The notes: a model not told the origin generated them from the sequence alone. A DNA stretch of 64,000 nt from Minisyncoccota bacterium (GCA_046350795.1 JAXLZT010000001.1:2411-66410), one strand, 5' to 3'; positions 15,287-52,410 are shown, numbered from the stretch's first letter. Numbers and translations are program-made.

Positions 15287-15318
15287 GTCTACCTACTTGT
15301 CCACGATCCACGAACTGT

Positions 15319-15816
15319 TCACACCCTTGCCATCGAATGCAGAGGAAAACCCTTGATGGCCATCAGTGCGCCATCAATGATCATCACCTGCTCATGAAAC
15401 GGACCGATGGGAGGAGCGACCCCGAGAAATTCCTCGAGGTAATCCTTCACCTGCTCATAGGTTGCCCCGGACAGGATCATCTGGCGAGAGCTTGTGAGCG
15501 TGTATCGGATTCCCTGACGGATGAGCTCGGGGGTGGTGGGGCTAACCTCACCACCATCCTTACCACTCACCTCCAGGCACGCGTCCCTCTTCTCCTCGAT
15601 CTTGATCTGCTCTTCCCAGCAGTTCCGGGCCCACTCCACAGACCTCAGAGCAAGACGCGCCCTGGTGACCCGGAGAATCCGTGAGGCCGTCTTGCGACGG
15701 AAACCCATGGACCTGAGCTCCTTGAACTGCTCTTCAGCAAAGATCTTGCGCCTCTTCATCTTGCTCTGCCCACGAGACCAACGATCCCTCTGCATGATTG
15801 TTTCCAATCTGCCCAA
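15319..15816 (-). CDS. Hypothetical basic protein (about 158-165 aa) in a high-GC island
   Basis: GC ~57% ORF; N-terminus KMKRRK-rich; no recognisable family. Confidence 0.45.
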   Translation of the reverse strand: MGRLETIMQRDRWSRGQSKMKRRKIFAEEQFKELRSMGFRRKTASRILRVTRARLALRSVEWARNCWEEQIKIEEKRDACLEVSGKDGGEVSPTTPELIRQGIRYTLTSSRQMILSGATYEQVKDYLEEFLGVAPPIGPFHEQVMIIDGALMAIKGFPLHSMARV

Positions 15817-15953
15817 TTAAGGGTTTGGTCGAGCCCTACTGCTCGACAGGGTGAAATGTGTGAACCGGGTGGTAGGATACCCAGTAAGTGACGACGAACG
15901 CCTCAAAAACCATAACACACATATCAAAATAAAGCAAGCAGTGGCTCGCTTTC

Positions 15954-16943
15954 TTATTTTCTCTTCAAAACTCTTTCCACCGCACTAGCGATAGCCTTCT
16001 CCCCCATTCCATAATGCTCGATAAGCTCTGCTGGTGTACCCGACTGTCCAAATTTATCATCCACACCCACAAACTCTACTGGCACTGGATTATTTTTTAC
16101 CAAACATTCTGCAACAGCACTTCCCATTCCACCGTGTATCTGATGCTCCTCTACTGTGACTATTGCACCAGCTTCTTTTGCTAGCTCTATAATAGAACGC
16201 TCATCAAGTGGCTTTATGGTAGACAAATTTAAAACCTTAACGCCAACTTTTTTTGATTCAAAATCTCGCGCAACCATTATTGCTTTATGTACAAGTGCGC
16301 CTGTAGCTACAATACCCACCTGTGTCTTCACTTTCTCTGGCTTAAAAAATATTTCTGCCTTACCTATTTCAAAATCTGTAGCCTCTGTCGTGATGATAGG
16401 AGTCTTGTCACGGGCAAGTCGTATGTATGTCGGCTCTTTTGTCTTTGCTGCAGCAATAGTCGCCTTCTTTGCTTCGATAGAATCACATGGAGAAAGTACG
16501 ACCATGTTTGGCATGACACGCATAATAGCAATGTCTTCTATTGCCTGATGTGTGCCTCCGTCTGGACCGACAGATATGCCAGCATGAGAACCCGCTATTT
16601 TTACCGGTTGATCATTGTATGCAATAGTCGTGCGTATTTGCTCCCAATTTCTTCCTGGAGAAAACATCGCATAAGATGTGATAAAAGGAATTTTGCCCAT
16701 CGCAGCCATGCCACTAGCAACAGATGCTAAATTTTGCTCAGCCACACCAATTTCTATAAAACGTTTTGGAAATTTTTGTGCAAAAAGATGCATTTGTGTA
16801 GATTCGGTCAGATCGGCGCAAAGCCCCACCACACGCTCATCTGCAATACCAGCAGAAAGCAAACCTTCACCGAAACCTTTTCGTATCGGCACCTGCTCCA
16901 CATCTTTATCAAATATTTTTGGGTTTAAATTACTCATGTTCAC
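15954..16943 (-). CDS. tkt: Transketolase, C-terminal (pyrimidine-binding) subunit
   Basis: Split transketolase; Pyr and C-terminal domains. Confidence 0.85.
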   Translation of the reverse strand: MNMSNLNPKIFDKDVEQVPIRKGFGEGLLSAGIADERVVGLCADLTESTQMHLFAQKFPKRFIEIGVAEQNLASVASGMAAMGKIPFITSYAMFSPGRNWEQIRTTIAYNDQPVKIAGSHAGISVGPDGGTHQAIEDIAIMRVMPNMVVLSPCDSIEAKKATIAAAKTKEPTYIRLARDKTPIITTEATDFEIGKAEIFFKPEKVKTQVGIVATGALVHKAIMVARDFESKKVGVKVLNLSTIKPLDERSIIELAKEAGAIVTVEEHQIHGGMGSAVAECLVKNNPVPVEFVGVDDKFGQSGTPAELIEHYGMGEKAIASAVERVLKRK

Positions 16944-17799
16944 TTTTTATCTTACCGCCAAGAGTGCGCAAAGCCGCCAGAGCCATTTCTGCTTCTTGCG
17001 CGTTTGGTGTCTTGCCGTGCCATTCAAATTTTCTTTCAAACTCAGGCACACCCTTTCCAGGAATAGTGTGGGCAATGATTAATGACGGCTTTTCAAAAAC
17101 AGCTTTTGCTTTGCCTACAGCATTTATAATGTCAGTAAAACTGTGTCCATTTATTTCTATAACATGCCAACCAAACGATCTCCATTTTTCAGCAAGTGGC
17201 TCTAGTGGCATGATATCTTCTGTAAATCCATCTATTTGAATATTATTTCGATCAATAAAACCTATTAGATTGTGCAATTTATTTTTTCCTGCAAGCATAG
17301 CTGCTTCCCATATTTGTCCTTCATTTAGCTCACCATCACTCATGAGACAATACACAAACTGCCCACTAGATACACCCTGATCGATTTTTAAAGCAAGTGC
17401 CATACCCACTGCCTGTGACAGACCAGAACCAAGAGGACCAGAACTAGTCTCAAGCATTTTTAAATACTCACGATGAGGATGACCCTGTAAACGTGAGCCA
17501 AATTTACGCAAAGTCATGAGTTCTTCTACCGGAAAATATCCAGCATGCGCCATGGTTGCATACATCACAGGACAAATATGCCCATTGGAGAGTACGAGTC
17601 TGTCTCGCTCGGCCCATTTTGTGTCATGCGGTTTGTGTCGGAGAATATGAAAATATAATGCGGTAAAAATATCCGCCATTCCCAGAGGTCCAGCAGTATG
17701 TCCAGAACCAGCTTCTAAAAGCATATGAATAATAGACTGGCGTATTTCATTTGCCTTTAGCTCTAGCCATTTTATTTTTTCGTCTGTGAGTTCTATCAT
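16930..17799 (-). CDS. tkt: Transketolase, N-terminal (thiamine-diphosphate-binding) subunit
   Basis: GSGHTAGPLGMADI and GDGELNEGQIWEA motifs. Confidence 0.85.
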   Translation of the reverse strand: MIELTDEKIKWLELKANEIRQSIIHMLLEAGSGHTAGPLGMADIFTALYFHILRHKPHDTKWAERDRLVLSNGHICPVMYATMAHAGYFPVEELMTLRKFGSRLQGHPHREYLKMLETSSGPLGSGLSQAVGMALALKIDQGVSSGQFVYCLMSDGELNEGQIWEAAMLAGKNKLHNLIGFIDRNNIQIDGFTEDIMPLEPLAEKWRSFGWHVIEINGHSFTDIINAVGKAKAVFEKPSLIIAHTIPGKGVPEFERKFEWHGKTPNAQEAEMALAALRTLGGKIKSEHE

Positions 17800-17807
17800 T
17801 TAAAAAT

Positions 17808-18999: not shown

Positions 19000-19093
19000 G
19001 ATCTTATTGTAACATTTTCAATATTATTATAGAATCACCGTTGAAATGTTCTCGACGTAGAGAGCAATACGTAAGTTCACAAGGAGGAACGGT

Positions 19094-19681
19094 ATGGGTA
19101 CAACAACACCAGACAAAACCGGTCCTGTGGAGATGAAGACCGGACTCAGTCTGAGCAGGTGTATTCCCCAGATCGCATCTGGGATCGTCGCGGAGGAAAA
19201 TGTGGCGAGGATCATCACCGCTACCAAGTACAACAGCGAGGAGAAGTGGAAACTCGCTGAAGACAAGCTCGCGAATGGTGACTGGGCAGCACATCCCGAG
19301 GCGGTGAACATTCTCCGGAGACTTCGTGTCGCCGGCAAGATCGTTCAGCCCCTCCTCGACAAGGGTCAGAAACCTGTTCTGCCAACTGATGGCAGGATCT
19401 GGATCTCTGAAGACGAAGAAGAAGATCTGCAGTGGACAACAGCTATCCCGGTTTCCGAGAAGGCTTCTCCCAGCCCAGCTGTCACTACTGATCCGATTGA
19501 AGTCATGGACGATCCCGCCCCAACGACGGCAAAGGCTCGTGCCACCACACCATCGGCCACCCGTACGACCCCACCCGTACGCGACATGCCACCCGCCACA
19601 CCAAAGGTGACTGGATGGAGGAGTTTCTTCGCCATCCCCAACTGGATCCGTCTGAGGTCGAAGAGGTCGAAACACAAGTGA
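19094..19681 (+). CDS. Hypothetical protein (195 aa) with Pro/Thr-rich C-terminal half, high-GC island
   Basis: Strong SD AAGGAGG 7 nt upstream; terminator downstream; GC ~55%. Confidence 0.55.
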   Translation: MGTTTPDKTGPVEMKTGLSLSRCIPQIASGIVAEENVARIITATKYNSEEKWKLAEDKLANGDWAAHPEAVNILRRLRVAGKIVQPLLDKGQKPVLPTDGRIWISEDEEEDLQWTTAIPVSEKASPSPAVTTDPIEVMDDPAPTTAKARATTPSATRTTPPVRDMPPATPKVTGWRSFFAIPNWIRLRSKRSKHK

Positions 19682-19726
19682 ATCACCTCGACATTCGACC
19701 AAAACCATCGCGAGACAAGGACCCAC

Positions 19727-19762
19727 CGTCCTGCTGTCGCGGTGGTTCTTTGTTTATAAGAT
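19727..19762 (+). terminator. Intrinsic terminator (CCACCG...CGGTGG plus TTCTTTGTTT)
   Basis: Hairpin plus T-tract after the 19094..19681 ORF. Confidence 0.5.
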
Positions 19763-21528: not shown

Positions 21529-22548
21529 TTACTCTATAGACATTGGCTCTGATTTTTTCTCTTCTTTCTTTCCATGAGAATGTCCATCTACTTCGTAGCT
21601 AGTGTTTTGTGCTTCAAAGAAATTTACAAGCTCATACACGTCTGTAGCTGTACTCATCCACTTTGCTGGATTTGTAACATTGTAATGCTTTGGCAAACCG
21701 AGCTCTTCGAGTCGGCGATCAGCTACATATTGTACGTATTGATTTACATAGTCTGCGTTTAGACCAAGTATTCCACGAGGGAAAAGATCTTTGTTGTAAG
21801 CGACTTCCAAATCAACTCCTTCTATTACTATGTTTCTTATTTCGTTTGCAAACTCTTCTGTGAGAAGCGCCTGATTTTCTTCCAAAATATTGTGAATTAG
21901 ATTTATTCCAAACTGTAGATGAAGACTCTCATCGCGAAGAACCCAATTTATCATTGAACCAAAATTGCGAAGCTGATTGCGCTGACGGAAAGAAAGGGCA
22001 ACCATAAATCCACTGTAAAACCAAATGCCTTCCATCACTATGTTTGTAGCAACAAGATTTCTAATGAAGTCTTTTTTTCCTTCTACAGTAGATATATCAA
22101 GAGTATCTTCTGTCATCCTCTTCATGTATTTTCCGATATAAGCTTCTTTTGCAAGCATTGAAGGCACCTGTAGATGAAGATCGAAAATCTTTTCTCGATC
22201 AAAAGGGAAAGTTTCAAGAACGTACTCAAAAGCTACACAATGATTTGCTTCTTCCCACATTTGCTTTGCGAGATACAAATGACATTCTGGAGATTTGAGG
22301 TAAGGATAAATACCGAGAGCGATAGATCTGTTGACTATGAGTTCGGCTGGATTAAAGAACGCCATTAAAAATTTAACAGCGTGTCTTTCATCTTCTGTCA
22401 TTTTTTCCCAATCTTCCAAATCTTCTTTAAGAGCGATTTCATGTGGAAACCATGTATTTCTTACTGCTTGATTATATAGATCGTATGCCCACTTATAATT
22501 TAGTGGATGCAAATTCATATCTTCTGGTGAGGCTTTTCCTATGAGCAT
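21529..22548 (-). CDS. nrdB: Ribonucleoside-diphosphate reductase beta subunit (class I)
   Basis: Ferritin-like di-iron ligands (EEANH, ESLHL). Confidence 0.85.
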   Translation of the reverse strand: MLIGKASPEDMNLHPLNYKWAYDLYNQAVRNTWFPHEIALKEDLEDWEKMTEDERHAVKFLMAFFNPAELIVNRSIALGIYPYLKSPECHLYLAKQMWEEANHCVAFEYVLETFPFDREKIFDLHLQVPSMLAKEAYIGKYMKRMTEDTLDISTVEGKKDFIRNLVATNIVMEGIWFYSGFMVALSFRQRNQLRNFGSMINWVLRDESLHLQFGINLIHNILEENQALLTEEFANEIRNIVIEGVDLEVAYNKDLFPRGILGLNADYVNQYVQYVADRRLEELGLPKHYNVTNPAKWMSTATDVYELVNFFEAQNTSYEVDGHSHGKKEEKKSEPMSIE

Positions 22549-22575
22549 ATTTTATTTTTATTATCGTTCTTGTAA

Positions 22576-25230: not shown

Positions 25231-25539
25231 GGTTTTTTGATTCGTTAATACAGTTGTAAAAGTTTGTCATATCATTTTACATTAAAAAAGTAGTCACCAG
25301 AACAGTGGATAAGCCTATTTTTGGTGGTTAGATAATAGAAAAACGGCAACGTAAAGATGGCTCTTAAATGAGCCTTATATAACAAAACAAAATGACAGAT
25401 TTTTGAAGAAAAAATAAAGAAAAAATAAAAAAATAACCGGTTTTTGTAAGAAAAAGTGAAAAAATTAATGAAAAGGGGGCGAGTCCTGCTAAACTCGCTC
25501 CCTGTGGCAATTCATTGGCGCAATTTCCCGCGCACGCAT

Positions 25540-26502
25540 TTAGATTGATGTCTTAGCGATCTTTCGATCTGGTGTTTTTACATTCCACACGAGTCCCAAC
25601 AAACGGAAGGTGCAGATGATGTAATAACTCGGATCGATTTCCCACCAACGATGTTGCACCGTGGCAGATACCTGATCGTAGTGATGGTTGTTGTGCCAAC
25701 CCTCACCACCAGTAATGATCGCAACCCACCAACTATTGCGTGACTCATCTTTTGACTTGTAGTTTTGGTAACCCCACATGTGTGTCGCCGAATTGACGAG
25801 CCAAGTGGAGTTCCAAAAAAACACAGTCCTCACCGCAACACCCCAAACAACGAAGCTGAGTGCCGTCTGGTAAGCTTTGGTGATGCCGTCTTGCGCAAAA
25901 CCAATAACAAAACCGACAGCAAAGATGACGATGGCGTGCAAGAGCCACACCAAAAGCCAACGGTTGTGCCTGTGCATCCACACGTGGAAAGGATCTCTCT
26001 GCAAATCTCTGGTGTTTTGGTACACTGCCTCTCCCTCAATCGCCTTATTGAAAAAGAGGAGCCAACCAATGTGAGACCACAAGAAATTTACTAGTGGCGT
26101 ATGCGGATCGGGTTGTGTGTCGGAATGATGATGATGCCTGCGATGTACAGACACCCACCAAAGACTCGAACCTTCAAGGTTGCAGAAAGCGAGCATTGTG
26201 AGAAGTCGCTCAAACCACCTTGAACATTCAAAACTACGGTGAGTGAGTAGACGGTGGTAGCAGATGCCGATGCCACACCAACCAATGGGCACGATCAGCG
26301 CAAACATCAAGGCAAGAGCCGAGCCAGAAAAAAAACTCGGCACCAATCCGCACAGCGCAAGTACACCACCCACAACAACAAACAAGTGCAGTGAGATGAT
26401 GAAGATCGCGCTTACCCAGTTGGGTGATATCACACCCTCAGGTATCTGTAGTGGATCCACGTTAGAGGGATCACGCACAGAATCAGCTTTAATAACACTC
26501 AT
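25540..26502 (-). CDS. Membrane fatty-acid (acyl-CoA/acyl-lipid delta-9-type) desaturase, high-GC island
   Basis: Three His boxes HRLLTH, HRRHHHHSD, HNNHHYD; 4 TM; SD AAGGAG 9 nt upstream; GC ~55%. Confidence 0.8.
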   Translation of the reverse strand: MSVIKADSVRDPSNVDPLQIPEGVISPNWVSAIFIISLHLFVVVGGVLALCGLVPSFFSGSALALMFALIVPIGWCGIGICYHRLLTHRSFECSRWFERLLTMLAFCNLEGSSLWWVSVHRRHHHHSDTQPDPHTPLVNFLWSHIGWLLFFNKAIEGEAVYQNTRDLQRDPFHVWMHRHNRWLLVWLLHAIVIFAVGFVIGFAQDGITKAYQTALSFVVWGVAVRTVFFWNSTWLVNSATHMWGYQNYKSKDESRNSWWVAIITGGEGWHNNHHYDQVSATVQHRWWEIDPSYYIICTFRLLGLVWNVKTPDRKIAKTSI

Positions 26503-26556
26503 GGTGATCGTCTCCTTGGATAGATCTAAGAGGAAATGGAAGGAACGCAAACTATA

Positions 26557-27015
26557 CTATAGCACAACCCTGTCTCCCACCTTTATCTTATTTTTTTCTA
26601 CAAAACCAGAATTAACTTCCAAAACATACATGGCTTCTTTTGGTGGAATAAATATCTCAGGAAAAGATTCTGGCTTTGCGTCTTCTTTTATATAAATAAC
26701 GTGGAAATTTTCATCAATCCAGACTATATCTATCGGAAATTTCATATCTTTCATCCAAATACCGGCTAATTGAGGCTTTTCAAATACAAAAAACAAACCA
26801 GAGTCAGGAGGCAAAGAGTCACGACCAGACAAACCGTGCATTCTTTTTTCTTCTGTATCTACCTTCTCTATATTTATGTAAACACCTCCTATAGAAAATC
26901 CGTTGACTGGAGCAAGAGTCGCCTTTTTGTAATAGAAAAAACAAAAAAGCAAAATTAGAAAAATAGAAACGGCAAGAAAAACACTTTTTTTATTTTTCAT
27001 CTTTCTTTGGATCAA
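26557..27015 (-). CDS. DUF192-family protein (secreted)
   Basis: N-terminal TM; DUF192-like core (FPIDIVWIDENFHVIYI). Confidence 0.6.
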   Translation of the reverse strand: MIQRKMKNKKSVFLAVSIFLILLFCFFYYKKATLAPVNGFSIGGVYINIEKVDTEEKRMHGLSGRDSLPPDSGLFFVFEKPQLAGIWMKDMKFPIDIVWIDENFHVIYIKEDAKPESFPEIFIPPKEAMYVLEVNSGFVEKNKIKVGDRVVL

Positions 27016-33620: not shown

Positions 33621-33638
33621 AAAATAAAAAAACAAAAG

Positions 33639-33675
33639 GTCGCCTCCGAATGAGGAGGCGACCCGTTTGGTTTTG
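33639..33675. terminator. Bidirectional intrinsic terminator (GGTCGCCTCC-gaatga-GGAGGCGACC)
   Basis: 10-bp stem plus CGTTTGGTTTT. Confidence 0.65.
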
Positions 33676-33702
33676 GTAGGAGTCCCTACCTAGGGATTGG
33701 AC

Positions 33703-34377
33703 CTACTTGCTCGTGGGCGGTTGCGTCGCAGGGCTCTGGGTGATGGAGCAACTCGAGGCTCCAGGCCCCCCGGCAGAACAGGAGGCGCTGCTGGCCTGAC
33801 TGCCGAGCACGCACTTGCACACCGGGTAGATGCCACTCGAGTTGAAGTTGCAGCAGGCGAAGTAGGCACTGTTGCCACAGGTCACCTGACACGTCTGAGG
33901 GCCCGCCGATGACGGGTTTCCATCAGCCGACGTCGAAACGTCAACGAAGGATCCCACGACCACCATGTTCCCAGCTCCGAGCTTGAGAACTTCCGGCTGA
34001 GACCCACCCATGATGAACTCGACGTCGGTGTGGCCACGATTCCAAATGAGCCCAGAGACAATCTCCTCGCCCATGGGAACCATGTCCGGGAACGTGTAGA
34101 CACGCCCAGACACCGTCGTGAGACGCCCGATCACGGTCAAGAGACCGGCGTCGTTCACGTACAGGGGTGCGGGGACGACGATGTACTCAGCCACGTTGAA
34201 CGTGAGGCCGATCGTTGCCATTTCCTCCGGCGACACCGAGGTCGCCCAGAGAAGGGTCCGCAGATCCCGGTCTTCCACCTTGCCGTTGGTAGAAGCGGTG
34301 GACGTCGAAGTGGTGATGAACGCCACCAGGCCCAGCACCAAGAGAACGAGAGCAGACAACGTCCGTGTCCGATTCAT
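33703..34377 (-). CDS. Secreted Cys-rich hypothetical protein, high-GC island
   Basis: Signal peptide (MNRTRTLSALVLLVLGLVAF); C-terminal Cys-rich tail; GGAG SD; GC ~58%. Confidence 0.55.
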   Translation of the reverse strand: MNRTRTLSALVLLVLGLVAFITTSTSTASTNGKVEDRDLRTLLWATSVSPEEMATIGLTFNVAEYIVVPAPLYVNDAGLLTVIGRLTTVSGRVYTFPDMVPMGEEIVSGLIWNRGHTDVEFIMGGSQPEVLKLGAGNMVVVGSFVDVSTSADGNPSSAGPQTCQVTCGNSAYFACCNFNSSGIYPVCKCVLGSQASSASCSAGGPGASSCSITQSPATQPPTSK

Positions 34378-34479
34378 GTGAATTCTCCAGTGAGTTACAG
34401 GATGCTTTGGCCTCAACGCACCTTGCGTCAAGTAGATTCCAATGTGCATCTAAAATTCACGATACGCTCATATAAAACT

Positions 34480-39735: not shown

Positions 39736-39852
39736 ACGAAAGAATCATATCAGAAAAAAACTGTTTTTAAAATTGGCTTGGCAAAAGTGACTTTATAACA
39801 TAATCTATACCTTGGATAGGAAACACCACCAAACAACAGGAGAAAGCTACCA

Positions 39853-40656
39853 ATGGGGACAAACGGAAAATCAAATCCGGACCGCTCCAAAGAGAGCGAC
39901 TCCGTGGATGTCTGGAAGCAGTACAAAGAGAATCCGAGCCAAGAGCTACGGAACAAACTCATACTCATGCATTACGGGGTTCTACTCGGCCACGCAAAAC
40001 GACAACACATCAGACTGAGGAAAATACTTTCCGTTGAAGAACTCGCGTCATACGGGCTCGATGGACTGATAGATGCCATTAATGCGTTTGATCCTGAACG
40101 TGGCATCAGGTTTGAGACATTCTGTTCACCCAGGATCTGGGGCTCGATGATAGACGGAATCCGCGAGATGGACTGGATCCCTCGCCTAGTCCGATCTAGA
40201 ACACGCAAGATTGAATCTGCGAGGGATCGTCTCAAACTGTCCTTGGGTCGAGATCCAACCCCCGAGGAAATACGAGAGGAACTCAAACTCAGCCCTGAAC
40301 AATATGAGAAAGAGAGTGGTGATTCACAACCAAAACACACCAACTCCCTCTCTCGTGAAGTGTGTGGGAATCAGCAAGGTGGCCGTGAGGTCTCACAAAT
40401 AGACTTCATCGAAGACGATGGATGTGAGAAGCCTGGAGATGAAGCCGATAGACAGGACCTGAGAAGATTCATGACTCGGGGGCTAGACCAGAAAAGTAGG
40501 CTCATCATCATCCTTCATCACTTCGAAGGCTTCAGCATGAAGGAGGTTGGTGAAATACTCTTCATGAGTGAGTCTCGGATATCTCAAATGCACACCGCAG
40601 CAATAGACGTGATTAGGTCAAACCTCGCACTGAAAGAGCTGTTGGACAAGCGTTGA
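39853..40656 (+). CDS. RNA polymerase sigma factor, sigma-70 family (FliA/WhiG-like group 3), high-GC island
   Basis: Region 2 (YGLDGLIDAINAFDPERGIRFETF), region 3, region 4 HTH (FSMKEVGEILFMSESRISQMHTAAIDVIRSNL); GGAG SD; GC ~55%. Confidence 0.8.
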   Translation: MGTNGKSNPDRSKESDSVDVWKQYKENPSQELRNKLILMHYGVLLGHAKRQHIRLRKILSVEELASYGLDGLIDAINAFDPERGIRFETFCSPRIWGSMIDGIREMDWIPRLVRSRTRKIESARDRLKLSLGRDPTPEEIREELKLSPEQYEKESGDSQPKHTNSLSREVCGNQQGGREVSQIDFIEDDGCEKPGDEADRQDLRRFMTRGLDQKSRLIIILHHFEGFSMKEVGEILFMSESRISQMHTAAIDVIRSNLALKELLDKR

Positions 40657-40678
40657 GAACAAAAAACAAAAACGCCTT

Positions 40679-40710
40679 TGGGCCGCCACGAAAGTGGCGG
40701 CCCATTTCAC
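40679..40710 (+). terminator. Intrinsic terminator (GGGCCGCCAC-gaaa-GTGGCGGCCC)
   Basis: 10-bp GC stem plus ATTTCACAT. Confidence 0.55.
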
Positions 40711-40791
40711 ATCATGTTATTGCCAAAAAAATATCATTGTGATTATATTGTGGGTGAAAAGTACACGCACAACCAACCCAGGAGCAACGAA

Positions 40792-41718
40792 ATGCCCAGC
40801 AAAAGCACCAGTGCAACCAAGTCAGAAAACGGTCAAGAACAGACCGGACAAATGCTCACGGTGGATATCAATCGTATTCGTCCGTTCAAAGAACAGCCGA
40901 GAACGTACTTCGAATCGACAGGTATCACCAACCTATCGAAAAGCATCAGGAACAAGCAGCGCCTCCCGATTTCCGTCATGCGCATTGAGGATGATCCCAG
41001 GCATGACTTCGAAATCATTGACGGAGAGCGTCGATTTCGAGCCGCAAAGGAGGCCGGGGTCAACAGGATTCTCGTTTGGATCAAGACCATCAGAAGCAAA
41101 GATGAGCAGTTCATCGACTCTGTGGTCTCCAACTTCGGACGAGAAAACCACACGGTTTTGGAGAAGGTAAACGCCTTCACTCGACTGCGACAGTGGTACA
41201 GCGCAGAAGAGATCGCTGAGCTGTGTGGTTGTCACTTCACGACCGTCTACCAGTACTTGTCACTTTCGAAGTTGGTGCCGGAAGCGTTGAAGAGGCTCGA
41301 TCCGAGCCTGCCAGAAGATGAGATGCTCAACTTCTCCACAGCAGCAAGACTCGCAACCCTTGATCCAGAGATCCAGCTCGACGTGCTTGAGCAGATCAGT
41401 GGCAAGAAGATGCCACATCGAGAAGTTCGACATTTCGTCCGGGCAAGAGCGCACGAGTCTGGAAAGCTGTCCAGCAGCAAGACGAAACCTGACAAGTATC
41501 GTCACAGACACTGGAACATGTTCACAGGATTTGTGAACCGGAGCGTTCAGGAGGCGAAAAGCATTGCCGACATGCCTGACAGCATGTTCGTGGAGGCTGT
41601 CACATCACGAACGAGAGCAGAAATGGAGTATTTCGAGAAGGAGGCCAACGCCCTCATTCGTGAGATCGAGAAACTCAAGAACAAGGTGATGAGAGCCAAG
41701 AAAACATCCTCGAAGTAG
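40792..41718 (+). CDS. ParB-like protein (ParB/Srx N-domain with GERRFRAA CTP-binding box, HTH, C-terminal coiled coil), high-GC island
   Basis: IIDGERRFRAAKEAG; HTH (SAEEIAELCGCHFTTVYQYL); start set at MPSKS with AGGAG SD. Confidence 0.75.
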   Translation: MPSKSTSATKSENGQEQTGQMLTVDINRIRPFKEQPRTYFESTGITNLSKSIRNKQRLPISVMRIEDDPRHDFEIIDGERRFRAAKEAGVNRILVWIKTIRSKDEQFIDSVVSNFGRENHTVLEKVNAFTRLRQWYSAEEIAELCGCHFTTVYQYLSLSKLVPEALKRLDPSLPEDEMLNFSTAARLATLDPEIQLDVLEQISGKKMPHREVRHFVRARAHESGKLSSSKTKPDKYRHRHWNMFTGFVNRSVQEAKSIADMPDSMFVEAVTSRTRAEMEYFEKEANALIREIEKLKNKVMRAKKTSSK

Positions 41719-41756
41719 TGGCGACCCAGAGGATTAGAAATCAACCAAAGCCATTC

Positions 41757-41790
41757 GGGGCCCCGCAATCTGTCGCGGGCCCCTTTTAAT
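41757..41790. terminator. Bidirectional intrinsic terminator (GGGGCCCCGC...GCGGGCCCC)
   Basis: GC stem plus TTTTAATTTT. Confidence 0.65.
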
Positions 41791-43015: not shown

Positions 43016-43178
43016 GTAATATATTGTATTATAAGAATAACATGAATGAAAGTGCTGGTCGTATCAAACTAGAACCGTAGTCGGTCAAGCTCGGTAAAGT
43101 TATTTTAGCATCTTTTCGTTTTTCAAATCGATGTATCTTGAGCATATAGAAAAACCGTGCTTATATTAGTTCATATTT

Positions 43179-43919: not shown

Positions 43920-43921
43920 AT

Positions 43922-44821: not shown

Positions 44822-44871
44822 CAATCCTGAAATAAAACGCCTCTCGAGTGCGATAACCCATCTCAACCTAG

Positions 44872-44942
44872 CTGCCGATCAGGGACTCGAACCCCAATTA
44901 ACCGCTCCAGAGGCGGTCGTCCTACCATTAGACGAATCGGCA
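44872..44942 (-). tRNA. tRNA-Gln (anticodon CTG)
   Basis: TGCCGAT acceptor, ACCGC-CTCTGGA-GCGGT anticodon arm, GGGGTTCGAGTCCC T-arm. Confidence 0.8.
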
Positions 44943-44995
44943 ATATTATCCCTACGATACTGGAAAAAGACACTATTTTCAACTATAATAATGGA

Positions 44996-46546
44996 ATGTC
45001 ATCAGAACCAATGAAAAATCTAGCTACAAAGCTAGCCACAATACAGACACAGACACTTTCTTCCGACAAAAGCAAACAAATATTCGAAGTTAACAATCTC
45101 ATAGGTAAAGCGGCCACTTTTTACGAAAAAGTGCGATACCTTGTCGACTACAAAGAAGAGCACACTATTAGACGCAATGCATTGGAGCGCATCCTCAAGA
45201 GAAAGATGGTCATCGAGGGTCGCAACGTCACAGGAGTCTCTATCCTCCAAGAGCTTGCTAGTGGACAATACATTCCTGAAGAAGTAGTAACAGAAGAGCT
45301 GGGCCAAAAGCTAAATAGCATTCTTTTAAAATTCCTGAGGCTCGAAGAGCTGTCCGGCGAGACCGGTGTCGTAGCAAAAAGACTACTTAGCTTTACTGCT
45401 TCAGAGATAGACTACACACTGAGTCACTATCATCATGTCACCGACCATGCCATCATCGATACTTTCTATGAAATGATGCGTAAAAATGTGTCCATGTCTG
45501 GCGTGATGGAGCGAGAGCTGGACAATGCTCTCTACTGCGCATGCCACCGAGCTCTCGTGCGTGCTGATGATGAAGGTCTAGCATATGCTCTATGGCTAAA
45601 GTATGTTCCAGAATGGCACACTATTACTGATGACGGACTTGCTGATCTAGCAAAGCAACTAAAACAAACTATTTCTGCTATAGATGCTTCTGTAAAAAAT
45701 CCTCTACAATGGCGACTCGTACAAAAACTAAAAAACGAAACGATTTATTTTTTGATCGTACGCGAGCTAGTCCAACAATATGGACCAGAATCTAGCCGAA
45801 TACTCGAGACTCCGGGTGAAATGGAAATATTTACACAGTCTTTACTTGAGAAAAAATACAAAAAAGAAAATGAACGTATACGAAAGAGTGGTATTCGCGC
45901 CGTTATTTATCTTTTCTTTACCAAGGCAATATTTGCTCTAGGACTAGAACTACCATATGAATACCTCGTGCTTAGCACAATGAACTACGTGCCTATTTTA
46001 GTAAACTTACTCTTCCCCCCTATCCTTCTTTTTATCGCTACACGCGGAGTGGGATCATTCAACAAAAACAATACAAAAGCAGTACTCACTGGCATGAGAG
46101 AGATGTTTTATGATGGCAAGATAGCAAAGATTAAAATAAAATCACACAGTACTGTCATTGCTTTCATATTTACTCTCGTATATCTAGTCTTTGCTGGTGC
46201 TGTATTTGGCGCGATGGTCTCTGTACTTCATTTCTTCCATTTCAATGTCGTTAGTATAGCCATTTTCCTTTTCTTCTTGGCGCTCGTAAGCTACTTTGCT
46301 TTCCGCATCAGATACAATGCAAAGAGATGGAAAACCACTCAAAAAGAAAATATTATTACACTCATCACCAGCTTGCTTACCGTGCCAGTCATTCGTACAG
46401 GACGATGGCTGAGCCAGTCTTTCTCTAGTATCAATGTGTTTGTCATCATCATGGACTTCATCATTGAAACTCCATTCAAGCTACTGCTCGATTTTTCAAA
46501 TCAATTTATCACTTATTTAAAAGAAAAGACTCCGGAGATTTATTAA
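44996..46546 (+). CDS. Hypothetical membrane protein (516 aa; soluble N-terminal ~300 aa plus 4-5 C-terminal TM)
   Basis: ORF with TM segments. Confidence 0.5.
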   Translation: MSSEPMKNLATKLATIQTQTLSSDKSKQIFEVNNLIGKAATFYEKVRYLVDYKEEHTIRRNALERILKRKMVIEGRNVTGVSILQELASGQYIPEEVVTEELGQKLNSILLKFLRLEELSGETGVVAKRLLSFTASEIDYTLSHYHHVTDHAIIDTFYEMMRKNVSMSGVMERELDNALYCACHRALVRADDEGLAYALWLKYVPEWHTITDDGLADLAKQLKQTISAIDASVKNPLQWRLVQKLKNETIYFLIVRELVQQYGPESSRILETPGEMEIFTQSLLEKKYKKENERIRKSGIRAVIYLFFTKAIFALGLELPYEYLVLSTMNYVPILVNLLFPPILLFIATRGVGSFNKNNTKAVLTGMREMFYDGKIAKIKIKSHSTVIAFIFTLVYLVFAGAVFGAMVSVLHFFHFNVVSIAIFLFFLALVSYFAFRIRYNAKRWKTTQKENIITLITSLLTVPVIRTGRWLSQSFSSINVFVIIMDFIIETPFKLLLDFSNQFITYLKEKTPEIY

Positions 46547-46627
46547 TCAATATAAAGAAAAGCCACCGGGTTAGGGTGGCAGAGGGGTGTCGTGAGTGGT
46601 GAGAAAAGATGACGGTCGATGGCAGGA

Positions 46628-46825
46628 TCAGAGTGGCTGACCAAACCGGTCAAGGGCCAGACAGCCACTGCAATCCTTCCAAAACCCCTGACGCTTGTCG
46701 TAGTGCAGACCGTGTGCCCTCCCAGCATCCCGGTTTTGCGGATTGCTCGGGAGCAAGTCGCTGTCAAACTGAGGCTTGGCGGGCTCAGTCACCTTTTGCG
46801 ACGACAACTCCGCTTTCTTTTCTGA
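46628..46825 (-). CDS. Small hypothetical protein (~66 aa), high-GC islet
   Basis: CAGGAG SD 8 nt upstream of MSEKK; hairpin terminator at 46572-46588 (CCACC-gggttag-GGTGG) plus T-tract. Confidence 0.4.
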   Translation of the reverse strand, partial: SEKKAELSSQKVTEPAKPQFDSDLLPSNPQNRDAGRAHGLHYDKRQGFWKDCSGCLALDRFGQPL

Positions 46826-46878
46826 CATGTGTGTCTCCTGTTTCGTGGTGTGCAAACCCAGAGTAATGTATCACGGTT

Positions 46879-48564
46879 TTAAGGTTTCTTCCAGTCTTTT
46901 AAAGATGCTTTTACAAAAGCAGTAAAAAGAGGATGTGGATCTAGGGGTCGCGCCTGAAACTCTGGATGAAACTGTGTGGCAACGAAAAACGGATGATCTT
47001 TGCGCGGTAGCTCTATGATTTCCATGAGCTTGCGACTAGGCGACACCCCAGAAAATACAAGTCCCGCTTTTTTTAATTTTTCTACATAATCTGGATTGAC
47101 CTCATATCGATGTCGATGTCGTTCAGAAATATTTCCTGAATCATATGCCTCACGCGCAATACTTCCCTTTTCTAGTCTAGCTGGATATGCACCAAGTCGC
47201 ATTGTGCCACCATAATTATTTTCCATCATATTTCTCTCCTGCTCTGGCATGATGTAAATCACCGGATACTCTGTCTTTGGATTGACTTCTGTGGTATGCG
47301 CACCAGACAATCCAGCCATGTTGCGCGCATATTCTATGACGGCGAGTTGCATACCATAGCAAATACCAAAAAACGGAATCTTATTTTTTCGCACATATTC
47401 TATTACTTTTATTTTCCCTTCGACAGCAGTCTTGCCAAATCCACCCGGTACGAGCACGCCATCATATTTATCCAGCTCGCTTAAATCTTTTTTACCAGAC
47501 TCAAAATCTCCAGCGTTTAAGTAGTGAAGCTTTGGCTTTACACCAAGCCTGTATGCAGAAAATTTTATAGCGTGGATGATAGAGATATATGCATCTGAAA
47601 GAGAAAACTCACCTGAATCAAAATATTTTCCCACTATCGCTATGTTGACCTCGCCATTTCCATTTTTTACATGTTTGATTAATTTTTTCCATTCGGTCAA
47701 ATCGCCCACGCGATTTTTTGGCCTCAAAGAAAGTGTCTCGCAGAGAATGTTACTTAGATTATCACGTTCAAAATTGACTGGCACATCATATATACTTTCT
47801 ACATCGGGGGCAGATATAACATTTTTTGTGTGAATATTACAAAAGAGGGCGATTTTTTCTTTTCTTTTATTATCCAAAGGCACCTCGCTACGCGCAATGA
47901 TGACATCAGCCTGTACGCCCACACTATTTAGTGAGCGAGAAGCGTATTGCGTTGGCTTAGTTTTCATTTCTCCTATTTTGCTTGGCATAGGCAGATAAGA
48001 CACCATAACAAAAGCCACATCGCTTGGATATTTTGAACGCATCATACGAGCGGCCTCGAGAAAAAGTACGTTTTGATACTCACCTATCGTGCCACCTATC
48101 TCTATGACAGTCACGTCAGCATCTGCATTTTTTGCAGCTTTTTCTATACGACGAATCACCTCCAAAGGCACATCTGGCACCACCTCCACAGTCTTGCCTT
48201 TGTATTCTAGATTGCGCTCTTTGCGTATTACCTCCTGATACACGCGACCAGTCGTCATATAGTTGATACGAGTCAGATCAATATTTAGAAAACGCTCATA
48301 GTTGCCCATATCTTGATCTGTTTCATCTCCATCTTTTAGTACAAAAACTTCACCGTGCTCAGTTGGATTCATGGTGCCTGCATCTACGTTGATATATGGA
48401 TCGATTTTTAAAGCAGTAACACTAAAACCACGAGCTTTTAAAATAAGAGCGATAGAAGAAGCAGCGACACCCTTGCCCACACCAGACATTACTCCACCGG
48501 TGACGAAAATATATTTCCTGATTTTCCGAGTACTCCGTTTTTTCTGTGATTTCCGTTTTTTCAT
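46879..48564 (-). CDS. pyrG: CTP synthase
   Basis: Synthetase domain plus glutamine amidotransferase (GICYGMQ). Confidence 0.9.
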   Translation of the reverse strand: MKKRKSQKKRSTRKIRKYIFVTGGVMSGVGKGVAASSIALILKARGFSVTALKIDPYINVDAGTMNPTEHGEVFVLKDGDETDQDMGNYERFLNIDLTRINYMTTGRVYQEVIRKERNLEYKGKTVEVVPDVPLEVIRRIEKAAKNADADVTVIEIGGTIGEYQNVLFLEAARMMRSKYPSDVAFVMVSYLPMPSKIGEMKTKPTQYASRSLNSVGVQADVIIARSEVPLDNKRKEKIALFCNIHTKNVISAPDVESIYDVPVNFERDNLSNILCETLSLRPKNRVGDLTEWKKLIKHVKNGNGEVNIAIVGKYFDSGEFSLSDAYISIIHAIKFSAYRLGVKPKLHYLNAGDFESGKKDLSELDKYDGVLVPGGFGKTAVEGKIKVIEYVRKNKIPFFGICYGMQLAVIEYARNMAGLSGAHTTEVNPKTEYPVIYIMPEQERNMMENNYGGTMRLGAYPARLEKGSIAREAYDSGNISERHRHRYEVNPDYVEKLKKAGLVFSGVSPSRKLMEIIELPRKDHPFFVATQFHPEFQARPLDPHPLFTAFVKASLKDWKKP

Positions 48565-50209: not shown

Positions 50210-50312
50210 GGTTTTGGTAGCATTTTCTGGTTAATTGTAGCATGAAAATTGGGTTGTAAAAAATAAGACCGCCCATTGACAGTACGGGGTTATTTATATA
50301 TTTTCTTACATA

Positions 50313-50420
50313 GAAACCGAGGCGTTGTGTCTCGGTTCAATTGTGTTCACAAGTGGTACTTGTGAACATTTACAGGGTTGCATCAGGTTGTTGCAACCAC
50401 AGTGTGGCTGTGCCACAGAG
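50313..50420 (+). promoter_or_regulatory. Cluster of four consecutive palindromes/hairpins upstream of a high-GC gene (candidate operator array or structured leader)
   Basis: AACCGAG-GCGTTGTGT-CTCGGTT (50315-50337); GTTCACAAGT-GGT-ACTTGTGAAC perfect 23-bp palindrome (50345-50367); GTTGCA-N9-TGCAAC (50377-50397); CCACAGTGTGG / GTGGC-TGT-GCCAC (50397-50416). Confidence 0.5.
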
Positions 50421-50426
50421 GAAAAA

Positions 50427-50945
50427 ATGAACAAGAATCCTATACAGATCGCCAGCGAGGAGTACGTGGCTGATTTCCCCTTCATCGAACACTGGGTGAG
50501 GCAGTACTACAACTCGCTCCGAACAATCACTGTAAAGAGATTGGATTTGGAGGCGCTACAACGGGTGGCCGAACTCTTCTATTTGTTCTTCTTTACTCAC
50601 TGGACACAAATCATCTGTGTCAGCAAAGATAAGAAGATCATGTGTGAGGCTCAGTTTGGCGGAACATTCTTTCACATAACTCCCTGGTGGGCTCCATGGA
50701 GGTGGAAGATTTGCAAAGTCGTAGGACATTCAGCTCTAGACACCCTTATGGGGCTCAATGAGCAAGATCTGGCTCGTGTCGGATATGTACTAATGGTCAC
50801 GGGCATAGACAACGGAAGTGTCAACATCATAATCTACAAGCTTCCAAAAGACCGCACTCTCTCGGAGTTTGTGGATGATGAGAAAGCCAGAATCAAATCC
50901 GAGGCTCGAGTAGAAATTGCTCGTGAAGCTTCGGTTGTTCGATAG
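50427..50945 (+). CDS. Hypothetical protein (172 aa), high-GC island
   Basis: GAGGA SD; Trp-rich (PWWAPWRWK); no family recognised. Confidence 0.5.
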   Translation: MNKNPIQIASEEYVADFPFIEHWVRQYYNSLRTITVKRLDLEALQRVAELFYLFFFTHWTQIICVSKDKKIMCEAQFGGTFFHITPWWAPWRWKICKVVGHSALDTLMGLNEQDLARVGYVLMVTGIDNGSVNIIIYKLPKDRTLSEFVDDEKARIKSEARVEIAREASVVR

Positions 50946-50970
50946 ACGATCGATGTGATTGCCAGACAGT

Positions 50971-51004
50971 GGCCCCAGGGATTTCATCCCTGGGGCCATA
51001 TTTT
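50971..51004. terminator. Bidirectional intrinsic terminator (TGGCCCCAGGGAT-ttc-ATCCCTGGGGCCA)
   Basis: 13-bp stem plus TATTTTTTA. Confidence 0.7.
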
Positions 51005-51880
51005 TTACAACCCCCTCTCGGCTTCAATAAACTCATCTAGGTCACCGGCGAGAACACGGTCTATATCTCGCACCTCTACGTCTGTGCGGTGATCCTTTAC
51101 CATTTGATATGGATGCATCACGTATGAGCGGATCTGACTGCCCCACTCATTTGTCGTGGTCTTACTGACATACATCCCCTTTTCTTTGCTTTTTCTATCT
51201 TCTTCTAATTTTTTATATAGTTTGCCTTGCAATACTTTGAGGGCATGCTCACGATTTTGCGCCTGAGAGCGCTCAGAGTCGGCCTGCGTAGCTAGGCCGG
51301 TCGGAATATGCACCACACGTACGGCTGTCTCACGTTTATTTACATTCTGACCTCCAGGACCGCTAGATCTGGAAAATTCAAATCTCAAATCTTCTTCCGG
51401 AATTTTTAAATCATCATGTCTATCAAATTTTGGTATCACTTCTACCATTGAAAAAGAAGTGTGGCGAAGCTGTTTTGAGCTAAATGGAGAAATGCGCACG
51501 AGACGATGCACACCTGATTCATTTTTTAGAGTGCCGTACACATTTTTACCAGATATTTCTATAGTCACATTACGATACCCACCATGATCATTTTCATTTT
51601 TATGCAATGTCGCACAACCCCAACCTTTTTTCTCAATATATTTTAAATACATTTCTAGTAAGATATGGGAAAAATCCTCAGCATCATCTCCGCCGGCGCC
51701 AGAAAAAATAGTCATTATGGCGTCTCCCTTGTCGTATTTCCCTACCCCCTCTAAATCATTTTTTAAATCTCCTAGCTCGCGAACTTTTGCCTGAGCTTTT
51801 TCTTTATCATTCCAAAAATCGGGTGAGGACATTTGTGCTTCAAGCGAAGCAATCTTTTCCAAAATCTCTTCTTTCTTCAT
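51005..51880 (-). CDS. prfB: Peptide chain release factor 2 (short, 291 aa; no programmed frameshift)
   Basis: SPF tripeptide (RISPFSSKQLRHTSF) and GGQ (SGPGGQNVNK). Confidence 0.85.
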   Translation of the reverse strand: MKKEEILEKIASLEAQMSSPDFWNDKEKAQAKVRELGDLKNDLEGVGKYDKGDAIMTIFSGAGGDDAEDFSHILLEMYLKYIEKKGWGCATLHKNENDHGGYRNVTIEISGKNVYGTLKNESGVHRLVRISPFSSKQLRHTSFSMVEVIPKFDRHDDLKIPEEDLRFEFSRSSGPGGQNVNKRETAVRVVHIPTGLATQADSERSQAQNREHALKVLQGKLYKKLEEDRKSKEKGMYVSKTTTNEWGSQIRSYVMHPYQMVKDHRTDVEVRDIDRVLAGDLDEFIEAERGL

Positions 51881-51921
51881 ATTAAAAGTATATCAGGCGA
51901 TTTCGTTTTTTATAAATTAAA

Positions 51922-51957
51922 TGGCCAGGGATCCAACAAGTGGGTCCCTGGCCTTTT
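51922..51957. terminator. Intrinsic terminator hairpin (GGCCAGGGATCC-aacaagt-GGGTCCCTGGCC plus TTTTT)
   Basis: 12-bp stem plus T-tract. Confidence 0.55.
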
Positions 51958-52334
51958 TGCCAGTTACGGGCGTTTCCTTGGGTGACCAAGGGCCGAATGC
52001 GCGGTGCTCTTTAGCGTCCGTGCTCGTGGAGGAGGAAGAGTGGCTTCGAAACACCTATGCACCACAATGCACAGGATCATCGTCGTCTTGTCTTCACTGG
52101 CCTCGACTATCTCCGGTTTTTGCGCCGCCCGACAACTGACAAACCAGGTCTGAAACAGAGCTCCTTGGTAGCTCATGAACCGACCCCTTGGGGTGGCACG
52201 AGGGTTTTGGCCTTGTTGGCCTTGGGCTCGTTTCTTTACTGGATTTGCTCTCTGAAGATGAATATTATACCTCTAATAAAAAAGTGCAAGGGTTTAATTA
52301 TGTGGTTGTGGATTACTAAAAATCACACAATTTC

Positions 52335-52410
52335 TGGAGCCATTGGCCGGGATTGAACCGGCGACCTCGTCATTACCAATGACGTGCTCTACCAACTGAG
52401 CTACAACGGC
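52335..52410 (-). tRNA. tRNA-Thr (anticodon GGT), CCA encoded
   Basis: GCCGTTG acceptor, CGTCA-TTGGTAA-TGACG anticodon arm, GGTTCAATCC T-arm, CCA. Confidence 0.85.

Follow-up and report, generated by a model that had tools for sequence, protein, structure and literature searches.

A 64,000-nucleotide stretch of DNA from a Minisyncoccota bacterium (GCA_046350795.1, JAXLZT010000001.1:2411-66410; the whole stretch is called the window below, and all coordinates are counted from its first letter) carries about nine short GC-rich islands, most of whose genes are preceded by Shine-Dalgarno (SD) sites, in an AT-richer backbone whose genes almost always lack them. We conclude, at a probability of about 0.72, that these islands are xenologous cassettes of mixed age, which came from SD-using, GC-richer sources outside the Paceibacteria and were later exchanged by recombination. 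An earlier annotation made from the sequence alone (the original prediction) had proposed recurrent acquisition, and the different sites and phyletic depths of the islands indeed point to several independent events. The feature is ordinary in kind: it is a clear example of a known process, the horizontal gene transfer (HGT) of cassettes, and leaves views of HGT unchanged.

The window is a stretch of the chromosome of Candidatus Paceibacterota, a member of the candidate phyla radiation (CPR; Patescibacteria). An exact protein look-up found the island proteins, with locus tags U0522_00100 to U0522_00300, on a contig of 562,216 bp from a Candidatus Paceibacterota metagenome-assembled genome (MAG), and the ribonucleotide reductase (RNR) of the window is 99% identical to that of a Patescibacteria MAG and 66-83% identical to those of about 80 Parcubacteria/Paceibacteria genomes. 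The backbone includes the genes for pheT, rpiB, rpe, transketolase, GAPDH, class I RNR, RNase J, purA, pyrG, ftsEX, a release factor, gatA and ligA. Large parts of the window are reproduced by independent assemblies. Positions 29853-50656 (20.8 kb, with islands 4, 5 and 6) occur at 99.99-100% identity in Logan assemblies of two other runs, a third Logan contig of 1.9 kb spans 38718-40665, including the start of island 5, at 99.9%, and positions 22540-29502, with island 3, were found at 98.2-98.5% in two runs of another project. Because independent runs reproduce these island-bearing stretches, the misassembly that the original prediction had raised as a concern is excluded for 29853-50656 and 22540-29502.

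Composition, start signals and layout of the islands

The nine units, eight of them numbered along the window, are listed here with their open reading frames (ORFs), protein lengths in amino acids (aa) and, where noted, the GC content of third codon positions (GC3).

317-566 unit: 282..566, plus strand; sigma70-type promoter (TTGACA 282-287, TATAAT 305-310) and a terminator hairpin at about 533-556.
Island 1: 15230..15930, minus strand; orphan ORF 15319-15795, 158 aa, GC3 0.71; GC 0.56-0.57, z=3.8-4.0.
Island 2: 19037..19760, plus strand; ORF 19094-19681, 195 aa, with a strong SD site (AAGGAGG); hairpin terminator 19717-19750.
Island 3: 25470..26560, minus strand; acyl-CoA/lipid desaturase gene 25540-26502, 320 aa, GC3 0.54; SD site AAGGAG.
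Island 4: 33632..34470, minus strand; secreted cysteine (Cys)-rich orphan 33703-34377, 224 aa, GC3 0.77; SD site GGAG.
Island 5: 39790..41790, plus strand; FliA/WhiG-like sigma factor gene 39853-40656 and ParB-like gene with its ATG at 40792, to 41718 (ORF from 40678).
Island 6: 46550..46880, minus strand; 66-codon orphan ORF 46628-46828, GC3 0.66; SD site AGGAG; hairpin terminator 46560-46590.
Island 7: 50215..51004, plus strand; orphan ORF 50427-50945, 172 aa, GC3 0.55; between ftsE and the release-factor gene.
Island 8: 51885..52334, minus strand; promoter TTGCAC-N17-TATAAT at about 52255-52284; strong hairpin terminator 51923-51957; adjoins tRNA-Thr.

We scanned GC content in 300-bp intervals (median 0.390, robust standard deviation 0.044, threshold z=3). 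Ten intervals exceeded z=3, against 0.29 expected, and nine of them (z=3.1-4.7) lie inside the listed islands. The tenth, 54601-54900 (52.7% GC, z=3.1), falls within the conserved gatA (Amidase) gene and is not an island, which shows that a GC cut-off alone gives false positives. The original prediction placed its GC-rich segments well, one being found at or near each position, but its GC figures are too high for most islands. Pooled, the nine units comprise 6,969 bp, or 10.9% of the window, at 51.8% GC; the backbone has 38.4% (39.8% for the window as a whole), not the background of about 35% first supposed. The proposed 55-60% GC fits islands 1, 2 and 4 (56-59%), whereas the desaturase, sigma/ParB, 46550, 50290 and 51900 segments have 47-52%. 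The contrast extends to codon positions and dinucleotides: GC3 is 0.53-0.77 in island ORFs versus about 0.22-0.43 in backbone ORFs, and the dinucleotide distance (delta*) between islands and backbone is 119. Taken singly, and bearing in mind that the segments are short, the islands lie at delta* 65-127 from the other islands versus 133-176 from the backbone, with the exception of island 8.

Start signals also separate the two sets of genes. Scoring GGAG, GAGG or AGGA at -20 to -5 of the start as an SD core, we found one before 8/10 island ORFs and 2/48 backbone ORFs (Fisher p=9.8e-7); a 5-mer is present in six of the ten. The island-1 ORF (GGAA only) and the island-8 ORF (GGGG only) have no SD core, so the original statement that every island gene carries an SD site is right for eight of them. 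Its companion statement, that core genes lack SD sites and the lineage initiates independently of them, holds clade-wide. When the start codons of orthologues were located by tblastn in relatives' loci of 28-57% GC (comparison loci are cited below by L numbers), SD cores preceded 5/288, and none of the 68 starts in Paceibacteria of 50-57% GC. Since SD sites are missing in these GC-rich relatives too, their absence characterises the clade and does not follow from a low GC content.

A TATAAT-like -10 box has its first base 9-22 nt before the ATG in 20/48 backbone ORFs and in 0/10 island ORFs (p=0.011). The backbone boxes typically end about 5-9 nt before the ATG (for example at ORFs 7659-8630, 14214-15215, 37517-37912 and 37955-38503), which suggests that many native mRNAs are leaderless and are transcribed from -10 boxes just ahead of the ATG. 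Together these results suggest that leaderless or SD-independent initiation is a trait of Paceibacteria as a whole, and because it is a lineage trait, an SD site is a valid mark of foreign genes. As Paceibacteria of any GC content do without SD sites, the donors of the islands would be outsiders or mobile elements; GC-rich Paceibacteria are unlikely donors, given the 0/68 starts at 50-57% GC.

The islands share one plan. At the edge stands a sigma70-like promoter rich in AT; then come a leader of about 45-130 nt, GC-rich and often with hairpins, an SD site, the coding sequence and a GC hairpin followed by a T-run. Each has a single ORF, apart from island 5 with two. By their predicted promoter and terminator signals, the islands are autonomous transcription units. 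In the 317-566 unit a GGAG is followed 6 nt later by a 31-codon ORF (393-488) within a GC-rich transcript, which could represent a small-protein cassette or a small RNA (sRNA). Island 1, placed between convergent pfkB-kinase and transketolase-C genes, has a GC-rich leader of about 130 nt with a hairpin upstream and a perfect 13-bp GC hairpin downstream (15247-15277). Island 2 is transcribed divergently from rpiB. In island 3, between the genes for a DUF192 protein and RNR, the promoter is of the extended -10 type (TGCTATAGT) and the terminator is a hairpin. The -35 box of island 4 is the reverse complement of that of the neighbouring major facilitator superfamily (MFS) gene, and two hairpins stand at the 3' side of the island; as the same -35 sequence is present in an island-free relative, the island-4 promoter is partly host-derived. 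The sigma and ParB-like genes of island 5 each have their own AT-rich promoter, SD site and terminator. Island 7 has a TTGACA promoter, a structured leader of about 100 nt, a GAGG motif and a hairpin terminator.

Island 6 sits between convergent genes, and its ORF would, from its composition, be coding-like. An imperfect 32-nt tandem repeat at 46504-46569 (75% identity, 34-nt spacing) crosses the boundary at which ORF 44996-46546 ends and island 6 begins, and may be either an insertion scar or a chance match. The 70-codon ORF of island 8 (51964-52176) is doubtful, with flat GC1/GC2/GC3 of 0.56/0.52/0.58. The ORF looks non-coding, and the island-8 transcript could be a structured RNA, perhaps an unknown sRNA next to tRNA-Thr.

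Insertion sites, age and allele exchange

The backbone gene order is common to dozens of Paceibacteria, and islands 1, 2, 3, 4 and 7 break its adjacencies. Insertion could be assessed at these five sites; the flanks of islands 5, 6, 8 and the 317-566 unit are not conserved in relatives' loci. At the island-1 site the gap between pfkB and transketolase-C measures 0-60 bp in L016, L043, L066 and L071; elsewhere among the relatives it is filled by unrelated inserts. Between GAPDH and rpiB many genomes have about 11 bp, compared with 1,458 bp in the window, where this gap contains island 2 and an AT-rich tetratricopeptide repeat (TPR) gene; island 2 is missing between the GAPDH and RpiB orthologues of L171 and L002. 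Outside one sub-clade, relatives have a DUF192-RNR gap of 140-370 bp without the desaturase. The RNase J-MFS gap at the island-4 site is about 80 bp in L006 and L171, with island 4 precisely absent, and of about 50 relatives most have 20-160 bp between the release-factor gene and ftsE, the island-7 site. When the window is aligned with L171, whose backbone is about 80% identical at the nucleotide level, islands 2 and 4 are cleanly missing and the host promoters intact. As in genomic islets, deviant composition goes together with absence at orthologous sites (islands 1, 2, 4 and 7, and island 3 outside the sub-clade).

The same sites receive other inserts elsewhere. GC-rich inserts occupy the island-2 site in L010 and L016, and host-like AT-rich ones are found in L097 and L135. 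Different inserts at the same sites across lineages indicate permissive hot spots for accessory genes generally, at which the GC-rich arrivals are only the conspicuous ones. GC islets of relatives, most of them with SD sites, encode PEP-CTERM, secreted and small Cys-rich proteins. The PEP-CTERM signal (VPEPMSFALMGAGLIGIAALRRR) ends proteins of islands with 52-58% GC in L005 (579-2105), L007 (432-2096) and L008 (1711-3522); this signal is normally linked to the exosortase systems of Gram-negative bacteria and is odd cargo for CPR. Homologous Cys-rich ORFs of about 91-96 aa lie in GC-rich islets at different loci in L016 (15531-15806) and L017 (6774-7064). Their sequences read MPTFEQL...GSCFVVTDSSRLR and MPTVEDW...GSCYGVTDASRLR, respectively, and they may be another cassette family circulating in the clade.

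The island-3 protein is a predicted membrane fatty-acid desaturase: it matches PF00487 at 4e-21 (76.3 bits versus a cut-off of 29.7), and its translation shows three histidine boxes (HRLLTH, HRRHHHH and HNNHH). The gene is syntenic at the DUF192-RNR junction in five or more lineages at 64-72% aa identity, with L001, L003, L171 and the contig of P0277 among them, and was therefore acquired before that sub-clade radiated. In every genome looked at, its GC content exceeds that of the local backbone by about 10%. Beyond the Parcubacteria clade the matches have 44-52% identity; the named ones are nearly all from Planctomycetota (44-48%), with one from Rhizobiaceae, and a homologue with 51% identity (L172), the closest outside CPR among those whose DNA was examined, lies on a contig of uniform 67% GC, with GC3 0.84. 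By a rough calculation, the observed divergence would allow GC3 to decay from about 0.84 to about 0.54.

A native AT-rich cytochrome b5 gene (37517-37912) lies 11 kb from the desaturase gene (25540-26502), with DoxX and Gmad2 genes nearby. Acyl-CoA desaturases usually receive their electrons from cytochrome b5, and the imported desaturase may have been plugged into this existing partner.

The sigma factor of island 5 has regions 2, 3 and 4 and, like FliA/WhiG sigma-28 factors, matches the FliA_WhiG profile (1e-52). It differs from them in scoring below the curated cut-off of TIGR02479 (179.1 versus 189.6 bits) and in lacking a flagellar or sporulation context, no flagellar genes being found in the window; it passes the generic sigma-70 family model TIGR02937 (72.9 versus 42.9). 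A genuine FliA locus with FlhF/FlhG was seen in L086. Control of the other islands by this sigma factor was considered and rejected, as no sigma-28 consensus (TAAA-N15-GCCGATAA) stands upstream of any island gene; nor do the islands share a 6- or 7-mer above shuffled controls. The best sigma matches are a strain variant at 80% identity, two copies at 48%, and then proteins at 42-44%, of which every named one is a Planctomycetota FliA. Its neighbour matches TIGR00180 (77.1 versus 58.45) and PF02195, ParB_N (53.1 versus 26.3), with HTH_ParB at 22.0, just under the cut-off of 22.6. It shares these two domains with ParB/Spo0J and differs in having no ParA partner, no ParA-like ORF being found in island 5 or beside the homologous modules, and in being paired with a sigma factor, beside recombinases elsewhere.

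Together with a third gene of 180 aa, the sigma-ParB pair recurs in two other contexts, L084 and L173, at 48%/41% aa identity. In L084 the module forms a 53% GC, SD-bearing island in a 37% GC, SD-less genome. Another GC island follows it, and genes for a serine recombinase and a transposase stand at a distance of 3-5 kb. In L173 it comes directly after a tyrosine recombinase on a 3.2-kb contig of about 52% GC throughout. A promoter, TTG[CG]CA-N17-19-TAATCT, is kept in the three very divergent copies and hence belongs to the module. The sigma-ParB pair is thus a conserved mobile module, and its sigma gene is under purifying selection.

Reading of the sequence confirmed that island 4 encodes a Cys-rich secreted protein; of the cargo named by the original prediction, the desaturase (PF00487), the sigma-70 family factor and the ParB_N protein are likewise confirmed. 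A search of 5.8 billion proteins returned only the island-4 protein itself and its orthologue in L087. There, in a backbone of 84% nucleotide identity, the protein is 79% identical and accompanied by a tandem paralogue with a duplicated promoter. The rate of synonymous substitution (dS) between the island-4 gene and this orthologue is 0.53, with a ratio of nonsynonymous (dN) to synonymous rates of 0.21, and dS in the flanking genes is 0.78-0.94; island 4 is therefore an old gene under selection.

The other islands have a narrower distribution. The first 100 aa of the island-2 protein match a hypothetical family of about 100 aa, with the best match in another Paceibacterota MAG. At 90% clustering the island-1 protein, annotated as hypothetical, has two members and that of island 7 three; AlphaFold models of these two orphans had a predicted local distance difference test (pLDDT) of 47 and 39 and are unusable. 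We found no homologue of the island-6 ORF in the protein look-up or in about 170 relatives' loci, and the island-8 ORF is absent from the protein collection. Islands 1, 2, 6, 7 and 8 came up in this species alone (with 2-3 members in their 90% clusters) and may be younger. Recent acquisition, as the original prediction had it, is accordingly wrong as a general statement, given a desaturase syntenic in at least five lineages, an island 4 shared with L087 and divergent copies of the sigma-ParB module. What was said to refute that prediction, islands that are ancient and syntenic in relatives, is true of some islands.

Two islands differ between otherwise near-identical strains. L001 is 95-99% identical to the window over the backbone and falls to 60-78% exactly over the desaturase island, where dS is about 2.0 and dN 0.22, compared with 0.18 and 0.007 in the adjacent RNR gene. 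The desaturase tree is incongruent with the backbone, L001 grouping with L003 and not with the window. Hypermutation of the island is ruled out by an essentially identical desaturase in the 98.5% identical strain L169. In L088 the flank of island 5 and the first 115 nt or so of the sigma gene are 96-100% identical to the window and the rest of the gene 71-85%, with a breakpoint at about 39967. Island alleles that diverge by 20-30% between strains with 96-100% identical flanks are the result of recombination through those flanks, and on the simplest reading the allele replacement is homologous recombination with more divergent island-bearing Paceibacteria.

Variation of this kind also touches the backbone. 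Relative to L169, positions 27340-27939, in the adenine-glycosylase gene, drop to 0.90-0.96 identity and mark a recombination tract, so that allele import is not confined to islands. On the same strand, tRNA-Ser (GGA) at 27966-28055 overlaps the 5' end of the longest adenine-glycosylase ORF (27383-28057), which places the start of this gene further downstream than the longest ORF and the Logan gene call have it. L001 is 95-99% identical from 20481 to about 25360; below 20481, set against L001 7585-15505, nothing matches beyond the 3' end of GAPDH and about 8 kb of different sequence come next, which indicates a rearrangement or replacement at the strain level by island 2. Positions 41798-46546 hold genes for MscL, a 153-aa orphan, an Imm_superinfect protein, a 246-aa orphan, a DUF4238 protein, tRNA-Gln and a 516-aa orphan. 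With GC3 of 0.40-0.43 and no counterpart downstream of pyrG in about 80 relatives, this looks like a larger, older variable region. The release factor (51005-51880) has 291 aa, and its match to the PCRF profile begins at position 88/194, so that its N-terminal domain appears truncated.

Proposed origin of the cassettes and alternative explanations

We propose that the cassettes would have been acquired horizontally in separate events, at different times, from sources outside the Paceibacteria that were richer in GC and used SD sites. Entry would have been by illegitimate recombination at intergenic sites, plausibly after DNA uptake, and for the sigma-ParB pair an integrative mobile element was probably the immediate vehicle. 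Once inherited, the cassettes would have been partly ameliorated, still keeping about 10-20% more GC than the backbone, and would have been exchanged among related Paceibacteria by homologous recombination through conserved flanks. The origin outside the clade has direct support from the desaturase and the sigma factor; for the remaining islands GC3, SD sites and insertion status make it probable. The original suggestion of high-GC donors is supported by these two genes, with their Planctomycetota-named matches and the 67% GC contig; the best match of island 2 is in a Paceibacterota, and the other ORFs are orphans. Expression of the cassettes is predicted from their signals, and the orphan products are putative accessory proteins.

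Several points weigh against this account. In the window we found neither att-like direct repeats or target-site duplications across island boundaries nor recombinase or integrase ORFs in or beside the islands, and the only tRNA-linked junction is that of island 8 (tRNA-Thr). Homologues of the island-2 ORF come only from another Paceibacterota MAG or are unnamed, and outside the species or its near relatives nothing matches a further six of the ten, which makes orphans of the ORFs of islands 1, 4, 6, 7 and 8 and of the 31-codon ORF. With most ORFs orphans, the donor assignment depends on just two genes. For these the best outside matches have 42-52% identity, with no close donor sampled, and the Planctomycetota signal could reflect the density of named sequences in databases; the dinucleotide signature of the islands is also far (delta*=191) from the single planctomycete locus compared, L086. 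GC3 of the desaturase is 0.52-0.57 in three lineages with third positions saturated, a poor fit to simple decay. Three-taxon parsimony gave 73 strong-to-weak and 62 weak-to-strong changes, a near balance, but the count is biased at saturation, where parallel strong-to-weak changes are mis-polarised, and we do not take it to show that a high GC3 is maintained. Islands 6 and 8 and the 317-566 unit, finally, might be sRNA genes and not protein cassettes.

The alternative that fares best, though we regard it as unlikely, derives all islands from one family of integrative elements, GC-richer (about 52%), SD-using and specialised on AT-rich, SD-less CPR hosts. The element would carry the sigma factor, ParB and a recombinase, and the other islets would be its morons or remnants, cargo or debris. 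Conservation of the sigma-ParB-180-aa module in three contexts speaks for it, as do the conserved module promoter, the tyrosine recombinase at the beginning of the 52% GC contig L173, and the serine recombinase and transposase near the module in L084 with its second GC island. So do the dinucleotide signature common to the islands and a GC offset that lasts over deep divergence. Yet the window holds no recombinase or repeat that we could find, its islands are scattered as single genes over eight sites and not in one block, and only the sigma and ParB genes have homologues in L084 or L173. The desaturase, moreover, has long been chromosomal and syntenic. Searches for a mobile relative were likewise unproductive: IMG/VR, scanned with ParB, with the Cys-rich protein and with two alignments, yielded no close relative, and in phage and plasmid records the tblastn matches of ParB did not exceed 32% identity. 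With PHROGs matching only the sigma and ParB proteins among those of the window, we rejected an origin from phages.

Three of the units (317-566, 46550-46870 and 51900-52300) could alternatively be native structured non-coding RNA genes, which are typically GC-rich in AT-rich genomes. We consider this doubtful. It is consistent with promoter-to-terminator units of 250-370 nt, with short ORFs of 31, 66 and 70 codons, and with folding z-scores against shuffled sequences of -3.2 for the 317-566 unit, -2.25 for island 6 and -5.1 for island 8 (51915-52285, minus strand). Island 8 fits it best, since it abuts a tRNA cluster and its ORF has neither an SD site nor codon-position structure in GC. On the other hand, Rfam at the gathering threshold and at E<0.1 detected only tRNAs in the window and no family for the three units. 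DNA homologues of the small islands were not found in about 170 relatives' loci, whereas native housekeeping RNAs should be conserved. The 317-566 unit and island 6 also have a well-spaced GGAG or AGGAG before an ATG, and the island-6 ORF shows the order GC3 > GC1 > GC2 of coding sequence.

A bolder reading, to which we give little credence, is that Paceibacteria keep a separate, long-lived pool of GC-richer, SD-dependent cassettes, including a sigma-ParB-recombinase element, that is shuffled among strains and long retains its foreign composition and translation signals. If true, genes for accessory functions or symbiosis would be expressed in a second mode of their own, which depends on SD sites, and the pool might also record an association with Planctomycetota hosts.

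Such an association is the core of a further and rather improbable explanation, repeated gene flow from a physically associated Planctomycetota host into a competent epibiont, followed by fixation. For two unrelated island genes, those of the sigma factor and the desaturase, the closest named relatives outside CPR are Planctomycetota, and PEP-CTERM proteins occur in the GC islands of L005, L007 and L008. Consortia of CPR and Planctomycetes have been reported (PMC9040852), which counts in its favour. Identities of only 42-52%, a Rhizobiaceae sequence ranking among the Planctomycetota matches of the desaturase, and a dinucleotide signature unlike that of the planctomycete locus L086 argue against it, as does the report that most HGT into Patescibacteria comes from other Patescibacteria (PMC12455944).

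Enrichment of GC in situ, by GC-biased gene conversion at recombination hot spots, is very unlikely. It would agree with allele replacement concentrated at two islands and with an apparently stationary desaturase GC3, but the islands are absent from ancestral sites and carry SD sites that the clade does not use, and the backbone recombination tract at 27340-27939 shows no rise in GC. For two of the island genes, moreover, outside homologues with a GC-rich ancestry are known. A step from 38% to 59% GC is, to our knowledge, far beyond any effect of biased gene conversion reported in bacteria. Weakest of all is the idea that the GC-rich segments are chimeras of assembly or binning: although the source is a MAG and composition switches abruptly, backbone sequence stands on both sides of each island within a few hundred bp, and the reading is effectively refuted by the independent assemblies of islands 4, 5 and 6 (identical in two other runs) and of island 3 (two further runs) and by orthologous islands at the same sites in other species.

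Significance and relation to known systems

Acquisition from outside followed by exchange within the clade, the account we favour, bears on how CPR cells live. They have minimal genomes and rely on other cells, so imports such as a desaturase, a secreted Cys-rich protein and an extra sigma factor indicate needs. Swapping of island alleles between near-identical strains shows that accessory genes form a recombining pool. The contrast in start signals, SD-less and leaderless-like native genes versus long SD-bearing leaders, is a marker of foreign genes that does not depend on composition and could improve HGT calling in CPR MAGs; it also raises the question whether the CPR ribosome uses SD sites at all.

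HGT and genomic islands in Patescibacteria have been estimated at up to about 13% of genome length, with transferred genes mostly old (mean divergence 24%) and exchanged largely among Patescibacteria, and with competence and pili proposed as the uptake route (PMC12455944). The present case is alike in concerning single-gene transfers in a streamlined CPR genome and in extent (10.9% of this window versus about 13% of the genome), and the exchange among divergent Paceibacteria agrees with the finding that most transfers come from other Patescibacteria. It differs in that single-gene units can be recognised by GC content and SD sites in an otherwise SD-less lineage, in that the donors apparently lie outside the phylum, and in the allele replacement between near-identical strains at two islands.

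The islands do not resemble classical integrase-mediated islands, having no recombinase, no flanking repeats and a tRNA at island 8 only. Nor are they integron cassettes: they are dispersed over 52 kb, have their own promoters and no integrase, and their 3' hairpins are simple terminators. The morons of tailed-phage genomes, promoter-gene-terminator units of deviant composition between conserved genes, are a closer parallel. Like them, the islands typically combine one ORF with a promoter of its own and a factor-independent terminator (predicted promoter hexamers and a hairpin with T-run occur at each island), have a composition unlike that of their neighbours, and are inserted between genes that are adjacent in relatives. 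Unlike morons, they are located not in a phage or prophage but in the chromosome of a cell, where housekeeping operons (pentose-phosphate, RNR, ftsEX, pyrG) surround them. In replacement-type flexible genomic islands, co-existing strains carry divergent versions at one locus. The desaturase and sigma alleles follow this pattern, being 20-30% divergent between flanks of 96-100% identity; here, however, single genes and orthologous replacements are concerned, and not multi-gene glycosylation or surface clusters with different content.

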